Source: Candidatus Korarchaeum cryptofilum OPF8
GTDB lineage: Archaea; Korarchaeota; Korarchaeia; Korarchaeales; Korarchaeaceae
Length of the DNA stretch: 32,000 nt
Assembly: GCF_000019605.1 (NCBI RefSeq)
Contig: NC_010482.1
Span: forward strand, 720,001-752,000
Direction of reading: 5' to 3'
Below the pieces are notes generated by a model, which saw only the letters and a list, made by a program, of their open reading frames with translations, ran no database searches and was not told the origin of the DNA. The stretch's first letter is position 1. Every line of letters begins with the position of its first letter. Shown piece after piece: positions 3,001 through 22,376 of this stretch. The translations under genes and the position numbers were made by a program.

Positions 3001-3154
3001 GCTTGAAGAACTCCTTGGGGTCTGTGTAGAGGGGGACCTCCCTCCGGAAGTAGACATCGCATAAGTTAGGAGCAGCTTTATCGTCCAAGCTCGTATCGTA
3101 GACATCATCCCAGACCTTCACATCTCCCCTCTGCAAATATTCCTTCAGCCCCAT
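1..3154 (-). CDS. DUF499/COG1483-like P-loop ATPase; C-terminus lies beyond the left window edge
   Basis: Absent from the ORF track because it is open at the window edge. Manual minus-strand translation from ATG 3154 (MGLKEYLQRGDVKVWDD...) stays open to position 1 (~1051 codons; frame verified at both ends). Walker A TSLFGGGKTHT (~2884-2910) and Walker B-like TIILLDEIVPY (~2547-2576). The start lies 4 nt after the stop of the upstream methylase gene. Confidence 0.85.
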   Translation of the reverse strand, partial: MGLKEYLQRGDVKVWDDVYDTSLDDKAAPNLCDVYFRREVPLYTDPKEFFKHTYLTKSMRELIEEIADSLEGKKGSNIFLLTSLFGGGKTHTLITLYHAFESPESLRDLDEKLAARISRLGRVKVVVMDASSTKLVPHPAEPYEAEGFKIRTIWGMLAYKLGRYADIEHLDSKGSPAPDIEKLRSILSGAKDPTIILLDEIVPYVFNMTRSEDLKDYGEKVILFLENLAKAIEPLERIALVISIQAEYRKGEPRYEELYRDVAEKILRHIRRETTKIVVPVAPEDIVMVLKRRIFSYISEDAAWKAQDGLQSTYRGYEIFGTESDWQLSLEEKRITAKDTYPFHPKYLEVLREFVTRNRDLQKTRDAIRITRKVVRRILSGREDSEFIMPWHIDLRDKDIRNLVLTESYKNFRDVASRDIVSEDGSLGSIANCSKPALALKIATVVLLKTYTYETFKEPLKVFPDLKDIALMTYDPESFSSSDLQPPDIEATVEEMLVKLPHFTGEENRFWFTPYPSVLEYVERRADEMLRGAILDLHRKLVNYVKSHVKGDTSGTRKKGEKPSGEVFDSNNVITLGYGDDIGRELRDEKSLRLVVMVKPDVSEEELRNIILREPGGGKRTYANTIAVVFPSKSNLEDELRYVAKIEAAEEIKENLSEYYTDKDIIKIQSNKLESYINENKGYLMQQILSLLTKVAYPYKGKEGNDIKIVEASPSSYLISQVEAALKDPRTGPKLRTKLEFKDISDFLKDNLGWDLVNGDRQFEFKEIMDVFYTNTAAPFTTQKAVEEALLEGLDKLDIGIKIEGGLYWKRIGSSGAERPKGLRDTAVILPWKRAAEQMKEELLSKSGVRKNGVTKRIWYEVEIGGERIPLEDLVKQEGWEEVLRAGVIEKREEELKRGFVLDVKPKHVELNQGEKAVFEISIEPVEDYSEEIKLQVEEGELSQGKGRPPMKVSWEVTPRRVGRFPLKIRAVSSDGLLKEESVSIVILSPEEERDVDKIDSSISGEKLLSISSSDLISLKIAIENVSKLGMKAKVNIDAEFGGNIRFSMEG

Positions 3155-3158
3155 GAGA

Positions 3159-6077: not shown

Positions 6078-6105
6078 TCACACCCCTCTGCTGGGTCCTC
6101 TCCAT

Positions 6106-6118
6106 GAAAAATATAAGT
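6106..6118 (-). promoter_or_regulatory. Candidate TATA box for the methylase-ATPase operon
   Basis: The minus strand reads AAACTTATATTTTTC, centred ~35 nt upstream of GTG 6077, in a 128-nt gap after the preceding gene. Confidence 0.35.
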
Positions 6119-6205
6119 TTTCGCTCCATCTTCCAATAAAAGTTTTCCCGGCTTTCCACAGCATTCATAGGGGTTAAGGGGCCCGCCTCAAGGCTCTTCA
6201 GCGGG

Positions 6206-7725
6206 TTAGATATATATGTGGAATACCCCTTTCGAGCTCGCGTAAGCTCTTATTCCCTGATCCGAGGTTATGAGTATGGCATTGTACTGTAGTGCGATGT
6301 CCACTATCTTCTCATCTCTCGCCTTGTTATATTTTTGATATCCCCTCAACTTTTCCCGGGCATTCAAGTCCTATCCTTCCTATCGATGAGAGTTCAGCTA
6401 ATTTACCGAGTTCTTGCTTCCCCTTTTTATTATCTGCCTCTTTTCTGACGACATTGGGCAGGATTATCGTGAACCCCTCGAAGAAGCGGGAGCTCTCGAG
6501 ATCCTTGCTTATCACCCCTCTGATCACTATATTCGTATCGGGCACTACGTAACCGCAGTAATATCTAAGGGTAATTCCTGCATTTTCTATCAATTTCTTA
6601 CATTTCGGGCACTTTATTCCGGAGATTTTCCTCCCATCATCTTCGTATATAGCGAAAGTGACACTCTTGTTTATGGAACCACAGTGCGGGCAGATTATGG
6701 CTAGAGACTGTATTGAGAGCCTTCCTTTATTGAACTCCTCTAGAAACTCTTCTGATAGAAGTTCCTCTTTTATCGGTGGGATTTGCTTCGATCTCTCAGG
6801 TTTCCCCTCAATCCTCCTCACTGTCTCATAGGATCTCCTGATGAACCACGGCCAATCCCTGCCCGACTCATACCATTTCTCCAACCATTTGATCGTCTGC
6901 ATATCATTCGGATTGCCGGAACCGACGGAGAGACCATCTATCTGGAAATCCGGATTTTCATTTATTCTCTCTATAATTTCTTCCCTAATCCTTTTCGATA
7001 CGAGAGAAGCTACTTTAACCTCTAGGTATCTCTCATCAGCCTTATTTTCTACTATAACTTCAGCTCCCTGATTCCTCAAGAAGTTAAGGTATCTTCCCAA
7101 CGTCGATCCGACTCCGTAATCATCGAGCACCACTCTACAGGAACGCATATCGGCATCTCTCGTAAATTTCGATAGGATCCTCTGATAAGTAACGTCCATT
7201 ATCTTATTCAGGTTATACTCATCTACCTCCTCAGGTGAGATCGTTTGCACCTCATACCGGAAGCCGTGCTTCATAAGGCCATCGATCCTCCTGAAGATTT
7301 CATCCCAATATTTGAAGTCGTGTCTCCTCTTCGTGTCAGCAGTACTTACTATATCGCTTAATTCGTCGAAGAGGTCTTAGGGAAAATCACACCGGCGAGT
7401 ACAACGTGACCTATGATCTCGCCTTTCCCCGTCTCATCCAAACCTATTAGGAGATCCCTCGAGGGGGTTTTGAATCTCGGAGAGCGGGAATCTATGTACG
7501 ACCACATATCTAAGACATTCCGATCCTGAGATCTGGAAGGCGTTGAATAAAGTGTCCCGTTCTTATAAAACGTGAATGTGGAATCAGATAGCTTGACTCT
7601 CCACTCCTCGCTTGGGCTTTTAACTTCCTCCTCAACACCCCCTGCATCAGTAAACGCTCTTTTATTTCAGCCGCGTCCTCTCTCGTGAGATTTTTCCATG
7701 TACGGCCTCCTACGGAAGAACTCAT
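6206..7725 (-). pseudogene. RNase HII/HIII-like + Zn-ribbon + PIN fusion gene broken by three frameshifts
   Basis: Four collinear minus-strand pieces. (1) 7725-~7640: MSSSVGGRTWKNLTREDAAEIKERLLMQG. (2) ...EEWRVKLSDSTFTFYKNGTLY...LLIGLDETGKGEIIGHVVLAGVIFPK, the RNase H2 N-terminal DE motif. (3) Track ORF 6327-7274, extended upstream, with VLDDYG, KADERYLEVKVASLVSKR, CPHCG...CPKCK and VVPDTNIVI. (4) 6206-~6330: RDEKIVDIALQYNAILITSDQGIRAYASSKGV, a PIN C-terminal motif. Shifts lie at the C5 run 7638-7642, at ~7375-7385 and at ~6300-6345. Confidence 0.7.
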
Positions 7726-7746
7726 CTTTTTCGTCGAATCTTAAGT

Positions 7747-7757
7747 GATATATAAAG
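7747..7757 (-). promoter_or_regulatory. Candidate TATA box for the gene starting at 7725
   Basis: gatatataaag (minus strand CTTTATATATC) lies ~25-30 nt upstream of ATG 7725. Confidence 0.35.
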
Positions 7758-7770
7758 CCTATATGGTGTA

Positions 7771-7790
7771 ATGCAACTGCAAGGTTGCAT
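7771..7790. promoter_or_regulatory. Inverted repeat ATGCAAC-N6-GTTGCAT in a divergent intergenic region
   Basis: Perfect 7-bp arms between divergent genes (7725 minus, 7812/7860 plus). Candidate operator. Confidence 0.35.
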
Positions 7791-7811
7791 GAATACCCTT
7801 AGAGGATAACT

Positions 7812-8297
7812 GTGAGGAAATTATTTATCTTTCTCCCCGTGAAGAATCGGGGTGTTGCGTTGAGTGAGATCATAGGTGTGATATATCCGGTACCCTCTAA
7901 CCTGTTGCAGAGGATATTCAGCGGCAAAGATGTGTTCATAAAGCATCCCACGTGCTTCAAGCAGCTCAAACCTGGGCACAAGGTCCTCTTCTACGCATCC
8001 CATGAGATAAGGGGCATCGTGGGGGAGGCGACGATAAAGAGCGTAGGGATGATGAAGCTCGATGAGATATACAGTAAATATGGAGAGAGGGTCTTCATAA
8101 CGAAGGAGGAAGCTAGGAGTTACTCGAGGCCCCTCAAGGATAGGAGAGGCGGAGGCCCCTACAGGGACGTCACTTTCCTCGTCCTAGAGCTCGAGGACAT
8201 AAAGAAATACGATAGAGTCGTGAAGCCCAGGAGGTTCATAACAGTGGGAGGGAAGTACTTAACGAAGCAAGAGTATGAGGACATGAGGTCTCACTAA
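7812..8297 (+). CDS. ASCH/PUA-like fold protein (putative RNA/DNA-binding)
   Basis: Track ORF. The pattern KPGHKVLFYASHEIRGIVGEATIKSV...LDEIYSKYGERVFITKEEARSYS...FLVLELEDIKKYDRVVKP matches ASCH-domain logic. The likely true start is TTG 7860 (MSEIIGV...), ~30 nt after aaattatttatc. Confidence 0.55.
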   Translation: MRKLFIFLPVKNRGVALSEIIGVIYPVPSNLLQRIFSGKDVFIKHPTCFKQLKPGHKVLFYASHEIRGIVGEATIKSVGMMKLDEIYSKYGERVFITKEEARSYSRPLKDRRGGGPYRDVTFLVLELEDIKKYDRVVKPRRFITVGGKYLTKQEYEDMRSH

Positions 8298-8383
8298 TTA
8301 TCTGAAATTTCTGCCTCCCACTATGCCTTATTTTCGGGGGCTCCCTAATACGTATTTAAATTTTGGGATCGCCGAATTTCCCG

Positions 8384-9136
8384 ATGGAATTGAGGGAGGA
8401 CGAGTCCTTATTCAGCCCCTCCGATACCTCCGCTACTTCGCGGAGAGGAGGGGAGTCTCTATAGACTCCTTGAGGATCCCGGATGCTATTGACATATGAT
8501 AGAGGCTTATTTGAATGTGCTAAGGGCCTCATCAGGGGCGAACCCATAGAATGGATGTATGGAGAAGCCATCCTGCACCGGCCGATTCAACGGTGTAGAA
8601 ATATGAGCTGGCCTTTTCCCGATCGGAGCACCTGCCGCAGCAGCCACACTCGAGGAAGCAATTGCATGCGGAGCTAAGATGATCATCGAGGTCGGCTTGG
8701 CCGGAGGCCTGCAGGGATTCCTGAAACCGGCTGATATAATAGTCGTGACGGAGGCAGTACGCGACGAGGGGACCTCCTATCATTACCTCCCGCCCGGAGT
8801 GAAAGTGGAGTCCTCCCAGAGATTGAGAGAGACTTTGATTGAGTGTTTGAATGGATGAGGCACTTCGTCGGCCCAGTTTGGTCCACTGACGGCGTTTACA
8901 GGGAGACCTTGGGCAAGTTCCGCAGGTTCAGGGATAGCGGCGTCTTGGCTGTGAATATGGAGACATCCGCAATTTTCGCTGTCGCGAAATATAGAGGCGT
9001 TGAAGCAGCTTCAGCTCAAGTGATTTCAGATATACTGACGGAGAGGGGATGGTTCCCAGCCTTTCACGAGAGATCTGTTAGGGAAAGTGCGGAAGTCCTG
9101 CTGAAGGCTGCCCTAGAGGTCCTTTCAAAGAGTTGA
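8384..9136 (+). pseudogene. Nucleoside phosphorylase (PNP_UDP_1, Udp-like), multiply disrupted
   Basis: Collinear fragments lie in different frames: MELREDESLFSPSD / LRYFAERRGVSIDSLRIPDAIDI / YDRGLFECAKGLIRGEPIEWMYGEAILHR / RFNGVEI-TGA(8604-8606)-AGLFPIGAPAAAATLEEAIACGAKMIIEVGLAGG...DIIVVTEAVRDEGTSYHY / track ORF 8843-9136 (GPVWSTDGVYRET...LAVNMETSAIFAVA). TATA-like tatttaaatttt lies ~25 nt upstream of 8384. Confidence 0.75.
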
Positions 9137-9318
9137 AAAGCTTTGCTTTCGTTAACTTCCGGGAGATAGAAATTCCACAGATTCAAGGTGAAGTGTGAAT
9201 AACCGGAGAGGGAGTTCGGCTCAAGGTCGAACTTATCGTTCTAAAAATGGGAAATCTGGCAGGTAAGCATTCTGATGGGAGACTTTCCCTGCTCACTAGT
9301 CAAGGTACTCGGACACAC

Positions 9319-10314
9319 TTATTCCTCGATTTTTGGACCATAGACTAGGCCGTGTTCCAAATGGTACACTGTTATAGGAGACTCTCTTCCTATTACAACT
9401 TTCATTGGCATAATTAGTTCATCGATAACCTTGAAAAACTTACGAGCGGTCTTGTAAAGATCGGAGGCCAATTTCTTTTCCTCATCTGACAGCTCTTCTA
9501 CGCACAATCCCAGCTTTTTCGCCTCATCCAGGTGAATTACTTTGCCATGATAGCTGTACTCGCTTACAAGCGTATTTGCAACACTATCTGCATTGGGAGA
9601 CTGTTGCATAGCACTGCCTTCTGACTTAATGGAGCTCCGTTTGAACATTTTGTTAGAAAGAAGCTCTATCAATAGCTTTCTCGCATGATTAATCAGTGAA
9701 TCATAATGCCCGAGCTCTGTTATGGGGATTCCGCTGAGAACTGCCTCAGTGAACGGTTTAATTACCGAGTTTACTGCTTCACTCATTCCAGGAGCTCTTC
9801 TAACAACATCTATAAGCTCCTTTATAACCTTTTCACGAAATATTTCCAGAGTCTGCCCAAAGGAATCCCGTACAACTTTCGCCGAGACCCAAGTCCTTGC
9901 ACTCTCCACGTACACCTGAGGATCCACAGGACCCAGCTCTGAAATTCGTGTCATGATTATCTTATCACCTGAGCATGCGAGGAGTGTGCCAGCAGACTTG
10001 GCCATCCTAGGAACTATGAAGGATAGTTCTCTCTCCCCCGCGAGCTTTTGCAACAGGATCCCTATATGATAAGCTGCATCTGCATCCCCTCCTAGAGTGT
10101 GAAGGACTACATCGATCCCTTCTTTGCTCGAGAGATCGTGCTCCTCAAGGAAAAACTCTAGATCGATGACATCTCTTGTGATGAATGCATCATCATGGAA
10201 GATCATTAGAATGATGTGTCTTCCTCTCTTATTCTCAAGCTCAGAGGAAATATTATCGAGCTCAGATAGATAGTCAAAAGGTCCCCTCGAAGTAATTTCA
10301 CTCATTCTATACAC
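9319..10314 (-). CDS. SDH-family (PF01972-like) ClpP/crotonase-fold serine protease
   Basis: VLHTLGGDADAAYHIG...IVPRMAKSAGTLLACSGDKIIMTRISELGPVDPQ matches the SDH/SppA-type Ser protease core. The likely start is ATG 10305, 1 nt after the upstream gene's TAG. Confidence 0.7.
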   Translation of the reverse strand: MYRMSEITSRGPFDYLSELDNISSELENKRGRHIILMIFHDDAFITRDVIDLEFFLEEHDLSSKEGIDVVLHTLGGDADAAYHIGILLQKLAGERELSFIVPRMAKSAGTLLACSGDKIIMTRISELGPVDPQVYVESARTWVSAKVVRDSFGQTLEIFREKVIKELIDVVRRAPGMSEAVNSVIKPFTEAVLSGIPITELGHYDSLINHARKLLIELLSNKMFKRSSIKSEGSAMQQSPNADSVANTLVSEYSYHGKVIHLDEAKKLGLCVEELSDEEKKLASDLYKTARKFFKVIDELIMPMKVVIGRESPITVYHLEHGLVYGPKIEE

Positions 10315-10916: not shown

Positions 10917-11657
10917 ATGCTATCCCTCAGCATCGGATTTAATCCTGATTTATGGACTTTGGAATCGGTCTGCAGAAGGACCATAGAAAACAAAAGAGGG
11001 AAGATAGATATCTACATATTCTACTTTGCCGTCCAGTTTCTCCCATTTCATGTATGGGATTACGAGCCTGTCATCGTATATGAAAGCGGGAATGAGGTAA
11101 CCTGCCTTTATGATGCTCTCCACTACTACATAGGATGCTCGAAAAAGCCGGAGCTCGTGATAAGCTATCCATAGAGGTCTTTTTATGAAGGATCTACTGA
11201 AAAGAAGGTTGAGCTGGATAAAATGCCGCAAAGAGAGCTTACGGATGAACTCATAAAGGTCTGGAGATCCAGAGATCACAACCCTTTCTCTATGGATGAG
11301 ATCTTCCTAGAGGATCCTTGGAAAGCATTGGATGAATTCAGGAAGGGAGAAAGGGTGAAATTTGGGGAAGAGCGAGAGAGAAAGATAGTATCACTTGAGC
11401 TTCCTGAATACAGAGATGTCGAGACTCTATACAACGATCTATCCCTTGCATTGGAGACAAATGAGATTATAAAGGGATTCAAATGGCCTGGAATTCTGGC
11501 GGAGTATGTCCTGTCATCAAGCATAGAAAAGGAGAGCCTTCAGTCCTTCCTAGCGAGAAAATGCATTGCTGAACGTATAGTGCTAGAAATGGAGAATCTG
11601 ACAAGAATAGAGGGGGAACTGAGATCAGTTTACAGCAAAACAGGAGAAGAATCCTAA
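10917..11657 (+). pseudogene. Hypothetical ~246-aa protein interrupted by one in-frame TAG (11172-11174)
   Basis: Track ORFs 10917-11174 and 11223-11657 share a frame and are separated only by TAG plus 16 sense codons. I recognised no family. Confidence 0.5.
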
Positions 11658-11834
11658 AAGCTGTAAATTATCCACAACACAGGCAAATCCCGGAAATCTG
11701 CACAGTATCTTTGTATCTAGAAGAAATTCTTGACTAGAAAAGTAAATTGAGTGCGAAAAAGATTTTTATACATTAAATTCTAGCTCATGATATGTGCATG
11801 CTATCTCACCTTAGTGACAGGGGAGGAGGATGAT

Positions 11835-11957
11835 ATGAAATATCAAGATATAGTAGAACTTAAGAAACGCATGGACTTTAACAGAACAGAATCAGAAGTT
11901 TTAGTTAAACTGGTGGAAGGTGCTCTCTACTATATAGGATGCTCGAAAAATTGTTGA
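11835..11957 (+). CDS. Small ORF (40 aa), possibly RHH-like
   Basis: MKYQDIVELKKRMDFNRTESEVLVKLVEGALYYIGCSKNC, preceded by GGGAGGAGGATGAT. Its 3' end is a near-copy of 11114-11146. Too short for the ORF track. Confidence 0.25.
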   Translation: MKYQDIVELKKRMDFNRTESEVLVKLVEGALYYIGCSKNC

Positions 11958-12025
11958 ATATGCGCACAATCTGGAGAGGAAACTTTATATAGAAAGTCCT
12001 GCAAGAATTAGAAGGGGGAGTAGAA

Positions 12026-12196
12026 ATGAGTAGAGGGAAGCAAAAGGAGCAATTATTTGAAATTAGAGTCTCCCCGGGAATTTTCGATTGGTGCAGCCCA
12101 GAGGAATTCGAGGAAGCGCTTAAGCTATACTTAGTTGATCGCCGGAATAAAACGACAGAAGAGGTTAAAAAAGAAGAAAGAAAAGCGAGATGCTAA
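12026..12196 (+). CDS. Small ORF (56 aa), Lys/Glu-rich C-terminus
   Basis: MSRGKQKEQLFEIRVSPGIFDWCSPEEFEEALKLYLVDRRNKTTEEVKKEERKARC, preceded by GAAGGGGGAG. It sits in a very AT-rich spacer. Confidence 0.25.
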   Translation: MSRGKQKEQLFEIRVSPGIFDWCSPEEFEEALKLYLVDRRNKTTEEVKKEERKARC

Positions 12197-12405
12197 AAAT
12201 AATCCTTTTCCTCTCTTTTTAATTTCCCTTTAGAAAAAGGCAAAATTAACATAACAATATCAAATACTGATGAGTTAGATATAATTTAGGAAAATAGTAT
12301 TAAAATGAAAGATACCATCAAAAGGAATTACTAGCTTAAAATATGAAATGATCTAACACCACATTTCTATAGGCTTAAGGGGGATTTCACTCCCTCTTTT
12401 TTATT

Positions 12406-13896
12406 CTAATCACTAGAAGATTTAACAATGTCATCAACTAATAAATCTCTAACTCTTCTAATGTCTTCTTCTTTTATATCCTTCTTTTGAATGTTTGGAA
12501 TTAAAAAAGATATGCGAAAGATTTCAGTTCTTCTAGCTTCCTCGTTCAGAACCCTAACATAAGAGGAAGTTGCTAATAAATCTTTCGGTTTACTTCCTTT
12601 CTTTCCTATTAGAATTCGCTCCTCCTCTTTTACGGCATAGGGTGAAAAAGGTATAGTAGAGAGTAACAAGATCGCGCCCGGGCGCGGATACATCGGTTTA
12701 CGCATTCCGCTTTTAAGTTCTTCGAGCCATCTTCTGAATTTATCAGCAATTTCCTCATCAGAAGGTTCTATGGATGATTTTCTCTTAATTTCTTCAATAA
12801 AATCATCGAAGTCCGTCTCCCTCTTAATTAAGGCAACCGGTATATACCGACGGTCGAAAAATGCCTTAAATTCTGGATGAGTTTCCTGATGCTTTCTTAA
12901 TTTAAAACGAATGAAAGTATCATCAACTTCGCCTTTTAGGAAGTTTTCAGGGCGGAAATCTTCATATTTTAGTTCGCCTTCTTCAACCATTGATTCTATT
13001 GCCATTTTTAGAAGTTCTTCCAGAGCACATACTAAATGATGGCCATATAGGGATTTATGCATCTTAATACGGGCATCTAAGATATCTTCGACCGCTCTTA
13101 AAGCCCGTTCATGTACGATTAACTGGTATTTTTCACTATATTTTTCTATAAATATATTGATAATTATTCTATTAATATCAGTCAAGCCGAATGGCAATCC
13201 TGTTGCATGCGAATCTCTTAAGAGATAGTCCATGCGGTCGGCATCCAATTGGCTTGAAATGATCTTTCTGAGAATTTCAGTACTATCTTCTGCTCTCTTT
13301 TTAATCAGAAGATTTGCCACATCTTCTACATTGATTTTATAGGATTCAATAGTTTTTCTAATTATACTATCTTTTTCGGTTATCATTTTATAACTAAAAT
13401 ATTCATGAACCGGTATATCCCTCTCACTCCTGCAGTTAAATAGATCTTTTGCCTCCTCTATCTCTTCATTTTTTAAAACTTTTCGTAAAATAGGTTCTGA
13501 AACATGTGAATAAGGACCATGACCAACGTCGTGAAGTAGGGCCGCTAACCTTACTGTTTGAATTATTCTATAACAATTTTCTGTAAATTTCTCAGAATTT
13601 GGATTTAGATTAAAAGCCTCCTTAAGCCCATCTAGTGATGCAGATCCCAAGATTTGATAGATCATTTTATTTGCCAGGTGCAAAACTCCGAGAGAATGTT
13701 CAAACCTACTTGTTTTTGCAGCTGGGTAAACCAAATAGGTAAGTCCCAAGTGATGAATATCGTGTAATCGGTTTAAAGGAGGTAATTGGAGAAGGTTGTA
13801 TTCAAGCTCAGTTAATTGAATAGGTCCATGAACGGAATCCATAATAGTTTTTGAGTATTCAAATCTTGGTAGAAATACGATCCCTTTTTTCGTCAT
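12406..13896 (-). CDS. HD-domain dNTP triphosphohydrolase-like protein (COG1078 / SAMHD1-type)
   Basis: Carries RFEHSLGVLHLA, LAALLHDVGHGPYSH and QLDADRMDYLLRDS, the H...HD...D metal-site signature of this family. ATG 13896 is preferred over the track's TTG 13908 (GGAAGGGGA lies upstream). Composition is AT-rich. Confidence 0.8.
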   Translation of the reverse strand: MTKKGIVFLPRFEYSKTIMDSVHGPIQLTELEYNLLQLPPLNRLHDIHHLGLTYLVYPAAKTSRFEHSLGVLHLANKMIYQILGSASLDGLKEAFNLNPNSEKFTENCYRIIQTVRLAALLHDVGHGPYSHVSEPILRKVLKNEEIEEAKDLFNCRSERDIPVHEYFSYKMITEKDSIIRKTIESYKINVEDVANLLIKKRAEDSTEILRKIISSQLDADRMDYLLRDSHATGLPFGLTDINRIIINIFIEKYSEKYQLIVHERALRAVEDILDARIKMHKSLYGHHLVCALEELLKMAIESMVEEGELKYEDFRPENFLKGEVDDTFIRFKLRKHQETHPEFKAFFDRRYIPVALIKRETDFDDFIEEIKRKSSIEPSDEEIADKFRRWLEELKSGMRKPMYPRPGAILLLSTIPFSPYAVKEEERILIGKKGSKPKDLLATSSYVRVLNEEARRTEIFRISFLIPNIQKKDIKEEDIRRVRDLLVDDIVKSSSD

Positions 13897-14393
13897 TCCC
13901 CTTCCCAAATGAGCTCGCTACAAGGCTATTTAATCTTTTCGTTCCTTCTCCCTTTCATGAATTTCGTGAACTTATCAGCCCTTTCTTCCTCTATACGATT
14001 CCTCTTTTCTTAACTTAAAAATGGTCTTTAGGGACAACCCGAAGCATCTTTTTCTCTAACAACCTTTATTTTAATTCCTTCATAGTTAGGAACTTCCCTA
14101 ATCACCTCTAATTCCACTTATTCCGTTTTCTATATGGCTCAGAGATGGCAAAAGAAGAAGCTAGAGGAGGTGAAGTTCAAACTTAAGAGGAATCAATCTA
14201 AAAGTTCGATATAGAAGATCTGGGCCTTGTTCACATATCTCATGTGCCGCACGTGCATGCCTTCTTCAGTGAAAATAAGAATGAGGAAAGCATAACAGCT
14301 TAGTGAAAGAGCACTAGAATAAGAGCCTTCAGAGGAACACTCCAGAGCCGAGATAAACCAAAGAGGATCAATACAGAACCGTTAAGCTTATAA

Positions 14394-14963
14394 ATGCTGA
14401 GCAGATATGAGGTTAGGGAAATGATTGTCGAAATAGTTAGCCTCACGGAAAATAACCTTATTGAAGCCCCTGAATGGGAAGAGTATCCCTTCAGCTGCAA
14501 GTACTGCACATACTGGGAGTTCCCAAGAGAGCAGAAGGATTCCTCAAAAAAGGAAGAAACGCTGGCTAAGAAGCTTGAATGGTTGAGAAGTGCGAGAAAA
14601 GCATTTGGCGAATGCGGAAAGATAATGTACGTGGATGGAAAGCCCGTTGGCTATGCACAGTATGCTCCTCCAAAAATGTTTCCTCTTTCAGCTGAATACC
14701 CATCTGGACCTCCCAGTGAGGATGCAGTCCTGATCTCCTGCCTCTTCATTGCTCATAAAGAGTACAGGGGAAAAGGGCTTGGCAGCCTGCTTCTACAAAG
14801 TATAGTTGAGGATCTGAAAGGAAGAGGAGTGAAGGCTGTTGAAACCTTCGCTAGGAAGAATAACACCAATAATCCGTCTGGACCCGTGGAGTTATACCTG
14901 AAAAACGGGTTTATGATTTTCAGGGATGATCCGGAGTTCCCTTTAATGAAGCTAGAACTATAA
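14394..14963 (+). CDS. GNAT-family N-acetyltransferase
   Basis: FIAHKEYRGKGLGSLLLQSIVEDLKGRGVKAVETFA is acetyl-CoA motif A (R/Q-x-x-G-x-G/A). Confidence 0.75.
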   Translation: MLSRYEVREMIVEIVSLTENNLIEAPEWEEYPFSCKYCTYWEFPREQKDSSKKEETLAKKLEWLRSARKAFGECGKIMYVDGKPVGYAQYAPPKMFPLSAEYPSGPPSEDAVLISCLFIAHKEYRGKGLGSLLLQSIVEDLKGRGVKAVETFARKNNTNNPSGPVELYLKNGFMIFRDDPEFPLMKLEL

Positions 14964-15039
14964 AGGAACATTTCTGGAGATGTTTATACCGGAATATTTA
15001 CGGCCTTTACTGGTTCAGTCTCATAAAGAGTATTTTAAA

Positions 15040-15085
15040 GCAAGCACCGGCTTGCGTCTTTGAAAGGGATTTAAATGGTGCTTGC
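15040..15085. repeat. 9-bp perfect inverted repeat GCAAGCACC-N28-GGTGCTTGC
   Basis: Arms at 15040-15048 and 15077-15085, in the AT-rich spacer 77 nt after the GNAT stop. Confidence 0.4.
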
Positions 15086-15288
15086 CGCGTGCATTAAACC
15101 TGCATTGTTTATAGTTTCTGGCCTCATTCCACCGGCAGCCCAAACATACTCAAAACAAGACAAATGCATGCAGCTAATATCTATCACTAACAGGATTAGG
15201 TTGTGAGAATTTCTTAATAAAACTTCAATTTAAAAATACATCTTTTATGTTCATAGTTCCATGTGCACGCTTGGAAGAGTCAAAGCTG

Positions 15289-16355
15289 TTAGAGGCATTG
15301 AGCAGCTCTCTTAACCACTGGATCCGTAAACTCGTTCTCATCATCTATGATTGAGTGCTTTCTCAAGCTCTGAAGCACCTCATATAGCACTCTGTCGCTC
15401 AGCTCCATCCCCTCATAATTCTCAAGAGCCCTTTTTAGCCTCCCCCAACTCCGTTAAACCTTCAGCGAGCAGCTTTAAAACCACTCTATATCTTTTGCTC
15501 ACCCTACTCGCAAGGAAGGACTCGATCTCGCTTTTCGCCAGCTCTAAAGCTTCATTTATCAAGCTATCAAAATCTCCGCCTCTCACCTTCAGGTAGCCGT
15601 AGTAGGTGAGCCAGCCGATGATCCCATCTAGCTCCTCAACAGCCCTCTCCACCTCACTTCCCTTAACTCCCGCTTCTTCGAATCCCCTGTTCAGAAAATC
15701 CAGCGACTCTTCCCTTGAGAGCTTGCGTGTCCTCACCTCCAGATAAGCCCTTCCGTAAAGGGGGTTCTCGGGATCCCCTAAAATTCCATAAAGCACGCCC
15801 ATCTCAGAGCCCGTTAGCACGAAAGAGAGATCTCTGTGGAAGTCGTAGGAATGCACTATTGCGCCGTGGAGGGATGCCCCAATAGGGCCCCGGGATCTCT
15901 GAAACTCATCGGAGACTATGATTACCTTCTCTCCAGTCCTTTCCCCAACTTCATCGAGCACATCGAAGAGCTCCCCTAAGAGGGGCCTCTTCCCGGGCAG
16001 CCAGTTCAAAGAAACCTCGAAGCCGAGCACTGAAACCCCTCTTAACCTAGAAACGAGCTTGAGAAATTCTCCCTTACCCCATCTAGAGGCCCTCTCGATG
16101 AACTCGCTGAAGCTCCTCGAGATCAAAGAGTAGAACTCCCTCCAGGAAGCGGAACCCCTGAGGTCTATGAATGCGTAAGGCCTATCGCTCTCATTCAAAG
16201 CTGTGAGCACAAGAGAGGTTTTCCAGCCCTCCTTATCCCAGAAACCACCGTTAAAGTTCTTTCAACTATTTAGATAACGACCTTAGTTCCTCATCGAAGT
16301 CGTACAGATCCCTCCTCGACACCTTCGGTCTCGGGTCGGACAGCAACTTCCGCAC
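15289..16355 (-). pseudogene. Arch_ATPase (PF01637/COG1672-like) with C-terminal wHTH, disrupted
   Basis: N-terminal piece from GTG 16355 (RKLLSDPRPKVSRRDLYDFDEELRSLSK-TAG). Then a degenerate P-loop, GGFWDKEGWKTSLV, leads into track ORF 15422-16210 (IIVSDEFQ Walker B). After a shift at the CCCTTTTT run (15429-15436) the frame continues ALENYEGMELSDRVLYEVLQSLRKHSII...DPVVKRA to the stop at 15289-15291. Confidence 0.65.
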
Positions 16356-16380
16356 CGAAAGTTACTTCCGCAGCGGAAGT
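16346..16380. promoter_or_regulatory. 17-nt perfect palindrome ACTTCCGC-A-GCGGAAGT plus an extra half-site
   Basis: Palindrome at 16364-16380, with a direct copy of ACTTCCGCA at 16346-16354. On the minus strand it lies between TTTATTA and the GTG at 16355, in the divergent region shared with the DUF433 gene. Confidence 0.45.
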
Positions 16381-16559
16381 AATAAACCCTTCTCGACTCA
16401 GGGCATGGGCACCTCGCATGAGAGAAGGGGTCTCCGATCCTCCCGATGGGAAGTATGAGAACAAATTTCAGGGAACCTCTTTTAGGGAGCATCCATGCTC
16501 TATTCAAAAGCTTCCGTGGTGAACGACATGTTTTTATGTTCGATAAGAAATGCATAGTG

Positions 16560-16802
16560 ATGCAGGAGCTCCTCAAGAGGATAGTCATCGATCCGGAGGT
16601 CATGGCAGGTAAGCCGGTGATACGCGGCACTAGGATAACAGTCGATCTCGTGCTGGAGCTACTGGCCGCTGGAATGAGTCCTGAGGAAATTTCTCAGGAT
16701 TACAGAATTAGCATTGAGGATATACGCGCTGTATTGTTATATGCCGCGAGAGGGTCGCATCTCGATTTCCCTGGACTTCGAAGTTCCGGCAGAAGCTTCT
16801 GA
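16560..16802 (+). CDS. DUF433 protein (antitoxin-like HTH)
   Basis: IVIDPEVMAGKPVIRGTRITVDLVLELLAAGMSPEEISQDYRISIEDIRAVLLYAA is a near-consensus DUF433 sequence. ATG 16560 is preferred over the track start at 16446. Confidence 0.75.
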   Translation: MQELLKRIVIDPEVMAGKPVIRGTRITVDLVLELLAAGMSPEEISQDYRISIEDIRAVLLYAARGSHLDFPGLRSSGRSF

Positions 16803-16842
16803 ACTATTGAGAGCTTATATACCAATACGTATCAGTATACAA
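16714..16842 (+). pseudogene. Possible 5' remnant of a DUF5615/PIN-like partner gene
   Basis: It overlaps the DUF433 3' end. RISISLDFEVPAEASELLRA resembles the N-terminus (LLDENxP...L...L) of DUF433 partners, but then runs straight into the next gene. Weak call. Confidence 0.25.
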
Positions 16843-17097
16843 ATGAGCACTAAGGTAATTCCCGTGAGGTTTAGGGAGCAGGAGCTGAAGCAGATAGATC
16901 AGCTTGTTGAATACGGAGTTTTTAGATCGAGAAGCGAAGCAATAAGAGAAATTATCAAGCTTGGCGTTGAGATAGCTCATTTATCTGAGGTGTTCAGAGC
17001 AGTCGATAAACTGTTCGAGCTCGAGAGGATGGAAGGCAGGATACCTATAGACCTGAGCGGGGCAACTCAACAGCTTCTGAAGGAGAGGGAAAGATGA
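16843..17097 (+). CDS. Ribbon-helix-helix (CopG/VapB-like) antitoxin
   Basis: MSTKVIPVRFREQELKQIDQLVEYGVFRSRSEAIREIIKLG is a classic RHH N-terminus. ATGA overlap with the downstream PIN fragment. Confidence 0.7.
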   Translation: MSTKVIPVRFREQELKQIDQLVEYGVFRSRSEAIREIIKLGVEIAHLSEVFRAVDKLFELERMEGRIPIDLSGATQQLLKERER

Positions 17098-18657: not shown

Positions 18658-18865
18658 GCTATATAAAGTTGATTCGAGAAAATGGGAATGGGGTGCCTTA
18701 GAGACATGGGGGATGAATTTTGAGATTCTGGCTGGATGAGAAAAGACTCTATTGGAAGTTCATAAACTCATCTATTGCGAGGCCCCATTATTTTTGGATA
18801 GCGTATCCGCAGCTAACTTAATCGGATCTCATCAAGTTTTTAGTTGAAGATAGAGGGATATTCGC

Positions 18866-19248
18866 GTGAGGACCGAGGTCCTATGGTGGCTTGAACAGGC
18901 TAAGAGGGACTTAAGGATGGCCGAGGAGCTGTTGAAGCTAGGGTTCTTTGAAGGGGCCGCATATCACTCCCATCAAGCCGGGGAGAAAGCCCTTAAAGCA
19001 TTAGTAATAAAGAAGGGAGGCTATCACTTGACTCATTCATGCAAGTTCCTCCTCGATCAGCTCAAAGTCCAGAAAATGGATGTAGATGAGGTATACAGTG
19101 ATGCGAAGGAGCTTATCCATTATATGACCTCGAGATATCCGAATGCAGCAGCGCTCCTCCTTATGAGCTTTACGATGAACAGAAGGCCAGGGAACTGGTG
19201 AACAGAGCGAGAAAGCTCGTGGACTTCGCAGAGAGGAACCTGATATGA
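18866..19248 (+). pseudogene. HEPN-domain protein (PF05168-like) with one frameshift
   Basis: Track ORF 18866-19201 (AAYHSHQAGEKALKALV...SRYPNAA). Its expected C-terminus APPYELYDEQKARELVNRARKLVDFAERNLI is in another frame from ~19150. That frame ends in TGA 19246-19248, overlapping the MNT start (ATGA). Confidence 0.7.
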
Positions 19249-19640
19249 GCTTAATGAGGGCCATATTGAAGCTTTTGAACGAGATTCCCATCAAAATAAA
19301 CTCGGCTGTTCTCTTCGGCTCCCTAGCGAGGGGAGAGGGCCTCCCATGGAGCGATGTCGACCTACTGCTCATATCCGGGGACTTCTCTGGGATGAGAGGA
19401 GAGGATAGAATACGCCTTTTGCTCGATAAATGGGATTATATGAGACCTTTAGAGCCAATTTGTTTATCTCCTGAAGAAATATCTGAGGAAAATCCTCTCA
19501 TATGGGAGATCTGTAGAGATGGAATTCCCATCGTGGATGATGGGACCTTCCGGGAGCTGAGGGAGAGGTGCATCAAACTCTTAGAGAGGAGGAAGATCGA
19601 GAGGAGGTGGTACGGATACCTGACCTCCTCCCCACCCTGA
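19245..19640 (+). CDS. Minimal nucleotidyltransferase (MNT, NTP_transf_2)
   Basis: AVLFGSLARGEGLPWSDVDLLLIS carries the GS...D.D catalytic motif. Confidence 0.8.
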   Translation: MSLMRAILKLLNEIPIKINSAVLFGSLARGEGLPWSDVDLLLISGDFSGMRGEDRIRLLLDKWDYMRPLEPICLSPEEISEENPLIWEICRDGIPIVDDGTFRELRERCIKLLERRKIERRWYGYLTSSPP

Positions 19641-19882: not shown

Positions 19883-20245
19883 CTATGTGCCTATCAGCTT
19901 CTCCTTCAACAAGTTTATTATATCAGATTTTATGGACGATACCTCCTGCTTCAGCAGCCTCACTTCTTCCTTCAGGTCGTCTATCCTCTTGTTAAGGGAG
20001 GTGTTTAGATCGTCTATCCTCCTATTCGTATCATCTATCCTTTTGTTAAGAGAAGCGCCCAAGTCGTCTATCCTCCTATTGAGGGATTCGTTCATAATCT
20101 CCATTCTCCTGTTCATCTGATCCAGAAGGAGAATTATAACCTCGGTGTCAGTCAGCCTTTTTCCCTCTGTAAGTTTCCTAGCTATCCTTTCGGATGCCTG
20201 CTTGAGCGCCTCCTCCAGCACTGATGTGATGATAGCCTCGGTCAC
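19883..20245 (-). CDS. Coiled-coil protein with [KR]RIDD tandem units, paralog A
   Basis: 120 aa. GTG start 22 nt downstream of ATATTTATAT (20268-20277). About 88% nt identity to paralog B in the flanking parts, by eye. Confidence 0.7.
   Translation of the reverse strand: MTEAIITSVLEEALKQASERIARKLTEGKRLTDTEVIILLLDQMNRRMEIMNESLNRRIDDLGASLNKRIDDTNRRIDDLNTSLNKRIDDLKEEVRLLKQEVSSIKSDIINLLKEKLIGT
19976..20120. repeat. In-frame 21/33-nt tandem repeats, core GTCTATCCTCYTRTT
   Basis: Four RIDD units plus one diverged unit (RRMEIMNESL). Confidence 0.8.
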
Positions 20246-20516
20246 AGGAGGAGTTGCCGAGAGGAGAATATAAATATGAGGGGAAGCTCTTAGCGATATC
20301 TATCGGTTGCAGCGTAATGGATTAAAACTATTGCTGGCATCGTCGAAGTCCTATAGAGCGCAGCGATCAGCTGTTTATCTATAGACCGGTGAGCCCCTAA
20401 AAGGGGGAAAGCTGTTGAATGGAGCTCCGACTATACTTGCAGTGCATCTTTAGAAGGATACTGCCGAGCTGTACGGGTAGTGGAAGCTTTAATAGAGATC
20501 GCTTCACCTTAACCGC

Positions 20517-20816
20517 GTGGGGATCGCATATATTCTTGAGATGAGAGTGGAAAAGGGCTGGCTAAAGCTGATAAGGAGGTTCGAGGAGATATTGAGGGAG
20601 AGAATCGGTGACAGGATCGTGAGGATAATAGCCAGATCCTCGCCGGAAGATCTGATCTATGGAAGCAATGTTGCAGTTGTTGTGGAGAGAGCAGATACCG
20701 ATCTGACCAGGGAGGTGAGCAGAGCTGCTCTAGATGCGATGGAAGAAGTGGGAATGGAGGGGTTGAGCCCGATAACGATATCTGAGGGGGATCCGATGGA
20801 GCATGAGTTTGGATAA
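20517..20816 (+). CDS. MNT-like protein with degenerate active site
   Basis: Its position and size fit a MNT upstream of a HEPN, with a 14-nt overlap. IVRIIARSSPEDLIYGSNVAVVVE occupies the place of LFGSxARG...DxD, but the catalytic residues are not conserved. Confidence 0.4.
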   Translation: MGIAYILEMRVEKGWLKLIRRFEEILRERIGDRIVRIIARSSPEDLIYGSNVAVVVERADTDLTREVSRAALDAMEEVGMEGLSPITISEGDPMEHEFG

Positions 20817-21153
20817 AGTTAGATCCCTCTTAAATCAGGCGGAGGACATAAAGGTAGCGTGTTACGATAAGTGCATCAGCTCCTCCTACTTCTCCTGCAG
20901 GATGATGGTGGAGATATTCCTGAGGAGCATGGGGATAGGGCAGCTACCGAGGAGGGATGATAAGCTTGCAAATCTGCTGAGAAATCAGGGATTAAGGGAG
21001 GAGGCTGATACTCTCCTCTTCCTATATGATATGAGGAAGAAAGCTGATTACGGATGGAGCATAGCGGGAAAGGAGGAGGCCGAGGAATCCTTGAAGGCAG
21101 CGAAGAGTTTAATAAGCTCTATCTCGGGAAGAATGAAGTTGAAGCTAATTTAA
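20803..21153 (+). CDS. HEPN-domain protein
   Basis: Helical protein of 116 aa. LYDMRKKADYGWS...EEAEESLKAAKSLIS matches the HEPN R-x-x-A-D-Y region and C-terminal helix. Confidence 0.6.
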   Translation: MSLDKVRSLLNQAEDIKVACYDKCISSSYFSCRMMVEIFLRSMGIGQLPRRDDKLANLLRNQGLREEADTLLFLYDMRKKADYGWSIAGKEEAEESLKAAKSLISSISGRMKLKLI

Positions 21154-21286
21154 GGCCGGGAAAAGCGTACTCAAGCATGGCTCTAGCTCTCTGGTAGCTC
21201 ATTGGCTATGGTCATATTTTGCTTCACTCCTGGCATTGTAATATGCTCACCATATTAAATATGAGCGAGAAACGAAAAAAGTGTTT

Positions 21287-21688
21287 TTATGGCCCTCCAG
21301 TGCCTGTCAGCCTCTCCTTCGACAGGTTTATTATATCAGATTTTATGGATGATACCTCCTGCCTCAGCAACTTCACTTCCTCCTTCAGGTCGTCTATCTT
21401 CCTATTCATATCGTCTATTCTCTTATTCGTATCATCTATCCTCTTGTTGAGGGAAGCGCTCAGGTCGTCTATCCTCCTGTTGAGGGAGGTGTTTAGATCG
21501 TCTATCCTCCTATTCGTATCGTCTATCCTCTTATTAGTATCGTCTATCCTCTTGTTTATCTGGTCGAGGAGGAGGATTATTACATCGATGCTAGTGAGCT
21601 TCTTCCCCTCAGTTATCTTCTTCGCTATCCTCTCGGATGCCTGCCTGAGTGCCTCCTCCAGGACTGATGCGACTACAGCTTCTGCCAC
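21287..21688 (-). CDS. Coiled-coil protein with [KR]RIDD tandem units, paralog B
   Basis: 133 aa. GTG start 22 nt downstream of ATATTTATAT (21711-21720). Seven RIDD/KIDD units. Confidence 0.7.
   Translation of the reverse strand: MAEAVVASVLEEALRQASERIAKKITEGKKLTSIDVIILLLDQINKRIDDTNKRIDDTNRRIDDLNTSLNRRIDDLSASLNKRIDDTNKRIDDMNRKIDDLKEEVKLLRQEVSSIKSDIINLSKERLTGTGGP
21390..21565. repeat. In-frame 21/33-nt tandem repeats, same core as 19976-20120
   Basis: Repeated gtcgtctatcctc... units read directly from the sequence. Confidence 0.8.
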
Positions 21689-22012
21689 AGGGGAAGCTGC
21701 TGAATGAGGGATATAAATATTGTGGGGAGAGAGCTGAGCAAGATCTATGAAAAGCTAATAATAGAGGTATATTCTAAAGGGAGATCAATAAAGAGGATTG
21801 GTCGCTGATGAAAAAGTAAAGTCTGTCAGGGCCCTTCCTTTTTCCAAAAGTATGTAAGTTCGTAGATAATGAACGATGCTAGTTTCACCGAGTCTGATGA
21901 GATCCAGCGCCTTAGAAGCAGTTGGAGATATAGTTCACAAGATCCGATATTATCGCGTAAGTATTTATTATCAGCTCTCTGGTATATTTCTCCCGAGGGT
22001 ATACATCAAATT

Positions 22013-22177
22013 TCAGATTTCTACCCCTTCTCCTGAGCTCTGTCCAGGATCTCTCACTCTCAACATAAGGGCTCCTTCAACAACTTCAAGTTCTACTGTT
22101 CCTTCCTCAATCCCCAGCCTCTCACGCATCCTCTTGGGAATAACTATAGCGCCTCATCTGCCGATAGGCACCTTCAT
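22013..22177 (-). pseudogene. AbrB/SpoVT-type antitoxin with in-frame TGA at codon 8
   Basis: MKVPIGR-TGA(22154-22156)-GAIVIPKRMRERLGIEEGTVELEVVEGALMLRV. No recognisable toxin gene follows it. Confidence 0.55.
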
Positions 22178-22376
22178 GGTCTTCAGATATTAAATACAGA
22201 CTGAATAAAAAGTTATCTGAAAATTTATCCAAGAAACTGAATATTAAGCTGAGATGGAACCATTTTCGTTGTTTTTTCATGGAAATCTCCAGCGACTTTG
22301 GTTGATTTTAGCGGAGGAATCGACTAATTCATCCATGTAATCACTTTTATTTTATAACCTCTGAGTATTGGGAACC

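Follow-up and report, generated by a model that had tools for sequence, protein, structure and literature searches.

Two members of a multi-copy archaeal coiled-coil family with a length-variable rod flank a HEPN cassette in Candidatus Korarchaeum cryptofilum

We analysed a 32,000-nt stretch of the genome of Candidatus Korarchaeum cryptofilum OPF8 (NC_010482.1, positions 720,001 to 752,000; hereafter the window, numbered from its first letter), in which two small minus-strand genes, here called A and B, bracket a plus-strand cassette of two overlapping genes, one encoding a HEPN protein and the other a small partner. Genes A and B belong to an archaea-specific, multi-copy family of coiled-coil proteins that is undescribed in the searchable literature, where we found nothing on this family or on archaeal HSBP1-like proteins. 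The number of repeat units in the rod of these proteins is not fixed and changes faster than the surrounding sequence. Taking all lines of evidence together, we think it rather probable that the pair is best understood as part of a multi-copy archaeal family with a length-variable rod, whose adjacency to the HEPN cassette is specific to one lineage. A preliminary description of the window had proposed a recently duplicated gene pair around a toxin–antitoxin (TA)-like module; what became of its claims is told with the results that bear on them.

Results

Genes A and B are coding and encode a three-part coiled-coil protein

Both paralogous open reading frames (ORFs) singled out in the preliminary description were recovered on the same strand (Table 1). 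We calculated the ratio of non-synonymous to synonymous differences per site (pN/pS) over the conserved ends of the genes. Orthologues gave values of 0.07–0.16 (0.07–0.08 for gene A and 0.16 for gene B), the comparison of A with B gave 0.22, and all orthologue and paralogue comparisons fell within 0.07–0.25. Thus, the minus-strand frame of both genes is the coding one and is under purifying selection. The long ORFs antisense to A and B are what one would expect opposite a coiled-coil gene rich in charged codons. The two proteins have no signal peptide and no membrane segment and are therefore presumably cytoplasmic. PADLOC, PHROGs and NCBIfam returned generic coiled-coil matches alone for A and B and none for the cassette proteins, and Rfam and tRNA scans of the window returned nothing. 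No database entry identical in sequence to either A or B was found.

Table 1 Coordinates of the features discussed, in window numbering
Feature	Position	Strand	Description and basis
Gene A	19883–20245	-	120 residues, coiled coil; ORF call, orthologues of 102–123 residues (L084/85, L086, L095, L101, L104), pN/pS, Pfam HSBP1
Repeat region of gene A	19973–20113	-	Codons 45–91; units of 33, 33, 21, 33 and 21 nt, 62–86% mutual identity
TATA-box element of gene A, ATATTTATAT	20268–20277	-	Ends 22 nt before the GTG at 20245
Gene B	21287–21688	-	133 residues, coiled-coil paralogue of A; ORF call, orthologues, pN/pS, Pfam HSBP1
Repeat region of gene B	21386–21556	-	Codons 45–101; 21/33-nt tandem units, 67–90% identical
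TATA-box element of gene B, ATATTTATAT	21711–21720	-	Ends 22 nt before the GTG at 21688
Partner gene ("MNT-like")	20517–20816	+	99 residues; overlaps the HEPN gene by 14 nt
HEPN gene (UPF0332-type)	20803–21153	+	116 residues; profile, AlphaFold2 model, Foldseek; motif R78-x4-Y83
Canonical HEPN (3' end frameshifted) and nucleotidyltransferase pair	18866–19640	+	Pfam HEPN 5e-20, NTP_transf_2 2e-9

The rod that separates the conserved ends is built from two kinds of unit, a 7-residue unit "s" (N-[KR]-[KR]-I-D-D-[TM]) and an 11-residue unit "L" (N-[KR]-R-I-D-D-L-x-x-S-L), the latter being a heptad plus four residues, that is, a stutter. In gene A, a conserved N-terminal module is followed by the rod L-L-s-L and a terminal unit, the first L being degenerate (NRRMEIMNESL), and then by a conserved C-terminal segment (...SSIKSDIINLLKEKLIGT); in gene B the order is s-s-L-L-s-s plus the terminal unit, s-s-L-L-s-s(-s), and the tail ends in ...LTGTGGP. 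The count of four RIDD copies in A and seven in B given earlier is correct, with one additional degenerate unit in A. The underlying 21- and 33-nt DNA repeats are in tandem as described, though at 67–90% identity the units fall short of the near-perfect repeats that had been claimed. Tandem Repeats Finder detected arrays in gene B (21376–21553, periods 21 and 33, 81–90% matches) and, at a score of 30, no array in gene A. Hydrophobic residues follow a 3-4(-4) spacing (I and T/L in heptads; I, L and L in hendecads), which would fit a parallel coiled coil with stutters.

The promoter geometry reported for the pair, ATATTTATAT exactly 22 nt before a GTG start, holds at both genes. The 22-nt spacer is pyrimidine-rich and lacks a Shine-Dalgarno-like sequence, and the centre of the TTTATAT element lies about 26 nt ahead of the start codon in A and B. 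Since about 26 nt is the usual archaeal spacing from TATA box to transcription start, each gene probably forms its own transcription unit with a leaderless mRNA, as had been suggested. TTTATAT also stands 22–23 nt before the start codon, which is sometimes ATG, in 12 Methanodesulfokora-type copies at other loci; this geometry is thus a property of the family and not peculiar to the A/B pair. A bacterial promoter and terminator scan is uninformative for an archaeon.

Rod length differs by whole units between positional orthologues

Same-locus contigs were gathered by a DNA pattern scan of metagenome contigs and from contigs reached via proteins. About ten independent copies of the locus were obtained (contigs labelled L084, L085, L095, L096, L099, L101, L104, L108, L110 and L111), with the conserved order VapBC–HEPN–nucleotidyltransferase (NTase)–A–partner–HEPN–B; in the five compared with the window by BLASTN (L084, L085, L101, L108 and L110), the flanks were 90–97% identical. 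Among these and the related Candidatus Methanodesulfokora washburnensis, orthologues differ in length by whole 7- or 11-residue units, while their conserved ends are free of insertions and deletions and their flanks are collinear (Table 2). A third paralogue, adjoining FtsX/MacB genes, likewise has 87, 109 or 123 residues in three genomes. The expansion or contraction of repeats proposed from the window pair is therefore strongly supported, and the suggested survey of copy number across strains found it variable.

Table 2 Length and unit order of the proteins at the two flanking positions
Position	Residues	Unit order	Source
A	120	L-L-s-L	Window, L095, L096, L099, L111
A	105	L-s-s	L084/85, L104
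A	123		L101
A	102 and 109		M. washburnensis
B	119	s-L-L-s	L095
B	126	s-s-L-L-s	L111
B	126	s-L-L-s-s	L085, L104, L108, L110
B	133	s-s-L-L-s-s	Window
B	133	s-L-L-s-s-s	L101
B	101		M. washburnensis

In L084, a 1.63-Mb contig from the Joint Genome Institute, the gene B orthologue (8214–8655) is frameshifted within the repeat region, and its counterpart in L085, a 10.8-kb contig from another sample, is intact at 126 residues; the frameshift may have truly disrupted the gene or may stem from a misread repeat.

Genes A and B are mosaics

Aligned at the nucleotide level with flanks and promoter included, as had been recommended, A and B show a mean column identity of 82%. This average conceals a marked difference between the two ends: in the window genome the first 132 nt are 77% identical, against 91% for the 87 nt around the C-terminal motif. 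Orthologues, by comparison, are 92–96% identical over the first 132 nt and 91–93% in the 3' segment. The 5' part of gene B is closer to dispersed paralogues (80–81%) than to A (77%), and the 3' parts of both A and B are 70–74% identical to those paralogues. At synonymous sites, A and B have diverged from each other (pS 0.45) as far as the window orthologues have from those of M. washburnensis (0.43).

Given the low 5' and high 3' identity of the pair relative to orthologues, and the affinity of the 5' part of B with dispersed paralogues, the recent duplication that had been proposed is unsupported in the window genome. Judging from these patterns, A and B are mosaics, for which patchy gene conversion among paralogues would be the best explanation. 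In M. washburnensis, an alignment of the two flanking copies shows 12 mismatches over 324 nt and, in addition, one 33-nt indel (about 96% identity), which points to homogenisation there. Upstream regions of two types are kept across species; the A type directly adjoins the partner gene, and the B type carries the first 13 codons of a divergent 199-residue gene.

The family is archaeal and resembles HSBP1 in its core

Protein searches returned more than 1,400 matches, the closest 110 of which have 82–188 residues and 2–7 units in many s/L orders. The nearest relatives are from Candidatus Methanodesulfokora washburnensis and from Thermoproteota/Korarchaeia, and Methanodesulfokora genomes carry several family copies each. 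In the short-read metagenome-assembled genome RCOS01, family copies are positioned at contig ends, and thus break short-read assemblies. Outside Korarchaeia, the groups that have this architecture include Thermofilales, Acidilobaceae, Pyrodictiaceae, Hydrothermarchaeota and Geoglobus. A conserved N-terminal module (...E.I.KK..EGKKL[ST]..[ED][VI]..L..) and a conserved extreme C-terminus (E[VI].SIK[ST]D[VI]I.L.KE.L) are shared by A, B and the distant archaeal members, in which the coiled-coil centre varies and is at times made of other units, such as D-K-R-F-E-Q-V. A scan of viral contigs with the family profile found no relatives, and a viral origin of the family is not supported.

Bacterial matches have the RIDD repeat alone in common with the family and are anchored by signal peptides or transmembrane helices; for these reasons we treat them as a different kind of protein. 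One alphaproteobacterial genome assembled from metagenomes encodes [ST]NKRIDD-repeat proteins that are membrane-anchored at either the N- or the C-terminus (L019, L031, L035, L040 and L041), in at least five copies with differing unit numbers. Similar anchored proteins occur in Nitrospirota and magnetotactic bacteria (L020, L025–L027, L042 and L047), and together they make up a separate repeat-variable family.

The best Pfam match of both window proteins was HSBP1 (PF06825; gathering cutoff 28.6 bits), with 30.7 bits for A (E = 2.8e-7) and 37.8 bits for B (E = 1.7e-9). Human HSBP1 (3ci9), a single long helix that forms a trimeric coiled coil, was also the best match in the PDB, both for an A-type orthologue searched singly (E = 0.005) and for the family profile (E = 6.5e-4). 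Against the human sequence, hhalign reported 94% probability and 47% identity over 43 columns, with about 41 residues aligned without gaps. The archaeal proteins are, by these comparisons, HSBP1-like in their core. Were they true homologues of the eukaryotic protein, they would be expected to act as it does, as small trimeric coiled coils that bind other coiled-coil proteins at their oligomerisation domains and regulate these domains. However, PF06825 did not match the non-RIDD members (L011 and L014 types) or an 87-residue member with two units (P0101), and a further member, P0078, scored 23.9 bits, below the cutoff. The match is thus carried by the RIDD repeat together with the residues immediately ahead of it and does not extend over the whole family. 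In addition, the end modules that define the family have no counterpart in HSBP1, the same repeat in bacterial membrane-anchored proteins indicates that the motif recurs in unrelated contexts, and short coiled-coil similarity is prone to convergence. On balance we hold true homology to be rather unlikely.

The cassette pairs a HEPN fold with a degenerate partner

The opposite-strand module between A and B had been described as MNT-like plus HEPN. Two overlapping plus-strand ORFs are indeed present, the partner lying upstream of the HEPN gene and overlapping it, as in L084–L090, and the HEPN half of the assignment is borne out. The Pfam HEPN match of the 116-residue protein falls short of the cutoff (E = 2e-3). 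A profile built from 11 homologues matched PDB 2hsb (AF0298) over the full length (E = 3.5e-5). The AlphaFold2 (AF2) model, with a predicted local distance difference test (pLDDT) score of 90.8, retrieved 2hsb first in Foldseek (template modelling (TM) score 0.82, root-mean-square deviation 1.8 Å), followed by HepT toxins and the HEPN domains of Csm6. Profile and model thus show a true HEPN fold, with its four helices in up-down order. R78-K-K-A-D-Y83 is invariant in the 11 homologues, with a tyrosine where the canonical R-x4-6-H motif has its histidine, and 2hsb aligns with the same R-x-x-x-D-Y; because of this invariant R-x4-Y, ribonuclease (RNase) activity of the protein is doubtful.

The MNT-like half was not confirmed. 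The partner has no sequence match in Pfam, NCBIfam or the PDB, NTP_transf_2 and Polbeta included, and in a search of 5.8 billion proteins it returned 10 clusters, all from Methanodesulfokora-type sources. The nucleotidyltransferase motifs G-S/hG[GS] and DxD are absent; in their place, all members of the family have A-R-S-S-P and S-N-V-A-V-V-V. Its AF2 model (pLDDT 77; alpha-beta-beta-alpha-beta order) gave weak and mixed Foldseek matches with TM scores of at most 0.54, among them a tautomerase, RsfS, MntA (6m6w_F, 0.43) and 2rff (0.41). The label "MNT-like" is therefore a reasonable guess from operon position. In most relatives the partner is a 196-residue tandem two-domain protein (L084 9135–9725, L086 9130–9720, L007 771–1361). 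The window and L101 have a 99-residue form that corresponds to domain 1 at its N-terminus and to domain 2 in its final residues, apparently a collapse of the longer form by recombination between its two internal repeats. We regard the cassette as a degenerate relative of HEPN-MNT systems that is confined to one genus.

Linkage of the coiled-coil genes to the cassette is lineage-specific

The four-gene block (A, partner, HEPN, B) stands at the TA locus in the roughly ten contigs listed above. In M. washburnensis it occupies a second site, between an aldo-keto reductase (AKR) gene and a group comprising a 218-residue protein, a 102-residue protein and a metallo-beta-lactamase; there, the full bracket was rebuilt by joining L103 to L109, two contigs of one sample whose 127-nt overlap is identical. 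At this second site, one or other of the flanking copies is missing in L086 and L007.

We considered whether the coiled-coil proteins are a functional third component of the module, for instance the real neutraliser or regulator of the HEPN protein, its MNT-like partner having lost the nucleotidyltransferase residues. The partner does lack the GS and DxD motifs, and two species and two chromosomal sites preserve the adjacency. Yet no coiled-coil gene lies within 5 kb of cassette homologues at 58–69% identity (L087, L089 and L090), one or other flanking copy has disappeared from some strains, and the genes form separate, divergent or convergent transcription units. Most paralogues elsewhere have no HEPN or MNT neighbours and lie near FtsX/MacB and membrane-protein genes, near DUF58/MoxR, or between the AKR and 218-residue genes without a cassette; another archaeon has four clustered paralogues and no TA genes. 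The only fusion of a family member (P0056; L091 5001–6563), in frame with the C-terminal part of a PaREP1 (HEPN-like) domain, abuts IS605 OrfB/TnpB; we rejected it as a functional fusion and read it as a probable insertion-associated rearrangement. With these points combined, a third-component role appears improbable. In Pfam assignments of 150 ORFs within 2.5 kb of a family member we counted five HEPN, five PIN and three NTP_transf_2 domains, and in 150 ORFs more than 4 kb away at the same loci four PIN, three PaREP1 and two to three NTase domains, so that this crude test gives no clear enrichment of HEPN, PIN or NTase genes near coiled-coil genes.

Surveying the neighbours of further paralogues, as the preliminary description had proposed, led us to conclude that the adjacency is lineage-specific, reflecting TA-rich variable regions and not a family-wide functional module. 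Three points weigh against this conclusion. In two species and at two loci, the cassette has retained coiled-coil genes to either side. A distant archaeon (L016, archaeon S141 bin.181, 1–10030) has three same-strand family members, one of them truncated, interleaved with opposite-strand genes for two HEPN-MNT pairs, a MazF-like protein, a lone MNT, VapBC and another PIN protein, an arrangement that also speaks for the third-component role. Finally, the control of the enrichment test is weak, its far zones still lying within 10 kb of a coiled-coil gene.

Recombination through the flanking copies is plausible but unproven

Direct repeats on both sides of the cassette had been thought capable of mediating its excision or amplification. 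Under this idea, the coiled-coil genes would be portable homology arms, and homologous recombination between copies would carry the HEPN-partner cassette from one coiled-coil locus to another or bring about its gain and loss. The block is bracketed on each side both at the TA locus of the window lineage and at the AKR locus of M. washburnensis, and the coiled-coil genes are the sole repeats that flank the cassette. No integrase, transposase or recombinase Pfam domain was found among the scanned ORFs of the window or beside the block in L084–L086. Patchy gene conversion between the copies and the shortening of the partner from 196 to 99 residues by recombination between tandem repeats would fit the same picture. 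At the AKR site of L097, L102 and L107, in another lineage, a single coiled-coil gene without a cassette precedes the 218-residue gene; it is 96% identical to window gene B at the nucleotide level, yet carries an A-type tail.

On the other side, no same-locus, same-lineage allele was found in which exactly the cassette is deleted between recombined copies. A candidate cassette-less allele in strain MDKW, obtained by joining L010 and L001 through a 121-nt identical overlap, was withdrawn: the flanking copies share identical 5' ends, which makes the join unsafe, and L103 plus L109 support the full bracket. Retention of the bracket in about ten independent contigs implies that deletion is infrequent, and beyond position -30 the L102-type gene and B have unrelated sequences upstream, so that the AKR-site gene may be a native paralogue. 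Flank loss, the two block sites and the cassette-less AKR site are consistent with recombination through paralogues, which is plausible; precise deletion of the cassette was not observed, and as a distinct mechanism we hold the homology-arm explanation to be rather unlikely. A still broader version holds that the family is a dedicated recombination-active gene set, supplying portable homology that captures, moves and loses TA-type cassettes without a site-specific recombinase, and that its proteins are true HSBP1 relatives serving as length-tunable adaptors; this seems to us quite unlikely.

Neighbourhood of the block

The canonical HEPN and NTase pair beside gene A is syntenic in L084, L085, L095, L096, L099, L104 and L111. 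Its HEPN gene (18866–19245) seems frameshifted in the window: the 130-residue L085 orthologue aligns to 18866–19153 in one frame and to 19144–19245 in another, and the L084 copy is also broken (88 residues). Between VapBC and this pair, L084 carries about 5.6 kb (11485–17086) with citrate synthase, isocitrate dehydrogenase and aconitase genes that are absent from the window (18667–18734). L104 has a 5.7-kb gap at the same place (3948–9728), and L095, L096, L099 and L111 show the close VapB-HEPN spacing of the window, which amounts to a presence/absence polymorphism of central-metabolism genes in a TA-rich region.

Upstream of B, the flank at 21800–22282 looks decayed and mosaic. It begins with the first 13 codons of the 199-residue gene, which is complete in L084 and is cut at the same point in M. 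washburnensis L010; a VapB/MazE-like fragment follows (22058–22180), and then a stretch homologous to the MazE-like gene beside AKR in L086.

The 218-residue protein that follows the family member at the AKR locus (L086 10385–11041; L001 374–1030; also L097, L102, L107 and L109) has a family-like N-terminus, its own 14-residue coiled-coil repeats (DKNTENIAKLTEKV) and an alpha/beta C-terminal domain for which Pfam and the PDB gave no match. As a recurrent neighbour with a similar N-terminus and a coiled coil of its own, it is a candidate partner of the coiled-coil proteins. Its N-terminus had also raised the idea that the family is a free form of the N-terminal coiled coil of PDDEXK/DUF3782-type nucleases; this was dropped after Pfam and PDB searches with the whole protein and with its C-terminal domain came back empty.

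Farther off, at 3159–6077, the window encodes a 972-residue protein with an N-terminal DUF1156 domain and a weak methyltransferase-like match. An RNase HII-like gene lies nearby, with an HD-domain protein and archaeal ATPase fragments further on, and the region may be part of a defence or DNA-modification island.

Discussion

We propose that A and B, two members of a multi-copy, archaea-specific family, are small cytoplasmic alpha-helical proteins. In each, a rod lies between a conserved N-terminal module of about 45 residues, made of two helices joined by a G-K-K-L-T/S turn, and a conserved C-terminal heptad segment (E-V-S-S-I-K-S-D-I-I-N-L). The rod is assembled from 7-residue (N-K-R-I-D-D-T) and 11-residue (N-R-R-I-D-D-L-N-T-S-L, heptad plus 4-residue stutter) units, and its length evolves fast by in-frame gain and loss of 21- or 33-nt units through slippage or unequal recombination. 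Exchange of segments among paralogues by gene conversion would have given rise to the A and B mosaics. In Methanodesulfokora, two copies flank the HEPN gene and its catalytically degenerate partner in a block inherited as a unit and present at two chromosomal sites, an adjacency that would belong to the variable TA-rich regions of this lineage and not reflect a functional requirement of the family. Judging from their sequences, the proteins may form parallel homo-oligomeric coiled coils, HSBP1-like and possibly trimeric, in which the conserved ends would bind partners and the rod, its length set by the number of units, would serve as a variable spacer or adaptor. The paralogues may also supply homology for rearrangements around them.

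Should this picture be right, a multi-copy family of small coiled-coil proteins has so far gone undescribed in Korarchaeia and further thermophilic archaea. The length of its rod would then vary within natural populations, one heptad or one hendecad at a time, which is unusual for cytoplasmic proteins and would offer a ready-made set of variants in which to study the functional effects of coiled-coil length and stutters. Paralogues of this kind break short-read assemblies and mark spots of structural variation, and therefore matter for assembling and comparing such genomes. The resemblance to HSBP1 is a lead for archaeal-eukaryotic links, one that currently rests on the repeat motif, and the cassette combines a HEPN protein without its histidine and a nucleotidyltransferase-like partner without catalytic residues.

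Comparison with known systems

The cassette is most readily compared with HEPN-MNT (HepT-MntA) systems such as SO_3166/SO_3165 of Shewanella, with which it shares its layout as a two-gene operon, where a small partner gene comes first and overlaps a gene for a HEPN protein of about 116 residues. The fold of the window HEPN protein is that of the UPF0332 protein AF0298 (2hsb, TM score 0.82), and HepT chains match as well. It differs from these systems in having R-x4-Y rather than R-x4-6-H, and in a partner that lacks the G-S and DxD motifs, is usually a tandem two-domain protein in relatives and has no detectable sequence relative outside Methanodesulfokora. Flanking coiled-coil genes are no feature of the known systems.

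Tandem-repeat coiled coils of variable length are known from the streptococcal M proteins and from heptad/hendecad stalks such as tetrabrachion. In this class, as in the A/B family, in-frame DNA repeats encode heptad and hendecad units whose number varies between strains and which lie between conserved end domains. The A/B-family proteins, in contrast, have no signal peptide or anchor, are 82–190 residues long, archaeal and multi-copy, and we found no evidence in the family for surface exposure or for selection by hosts or viruses.

With HSBP1, the archaeal proteins share small size, an all-helical, presumably cytoplasmic nature and a common core, ...V.LL.QM......M.....RIDD...RIDDL...I..L. Unlike HSBP1, they also have a helix-turn module of about 30 residues at the N-terminus and a further conserved segment at the C-terminus, and the similarity is lost in archaeal members that use other repeat units. 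HSBP1 has two RIDD units, whereas the archaeal proteins have two to seven, are encoded in multiple copies and vary in unit number from strain to strain.

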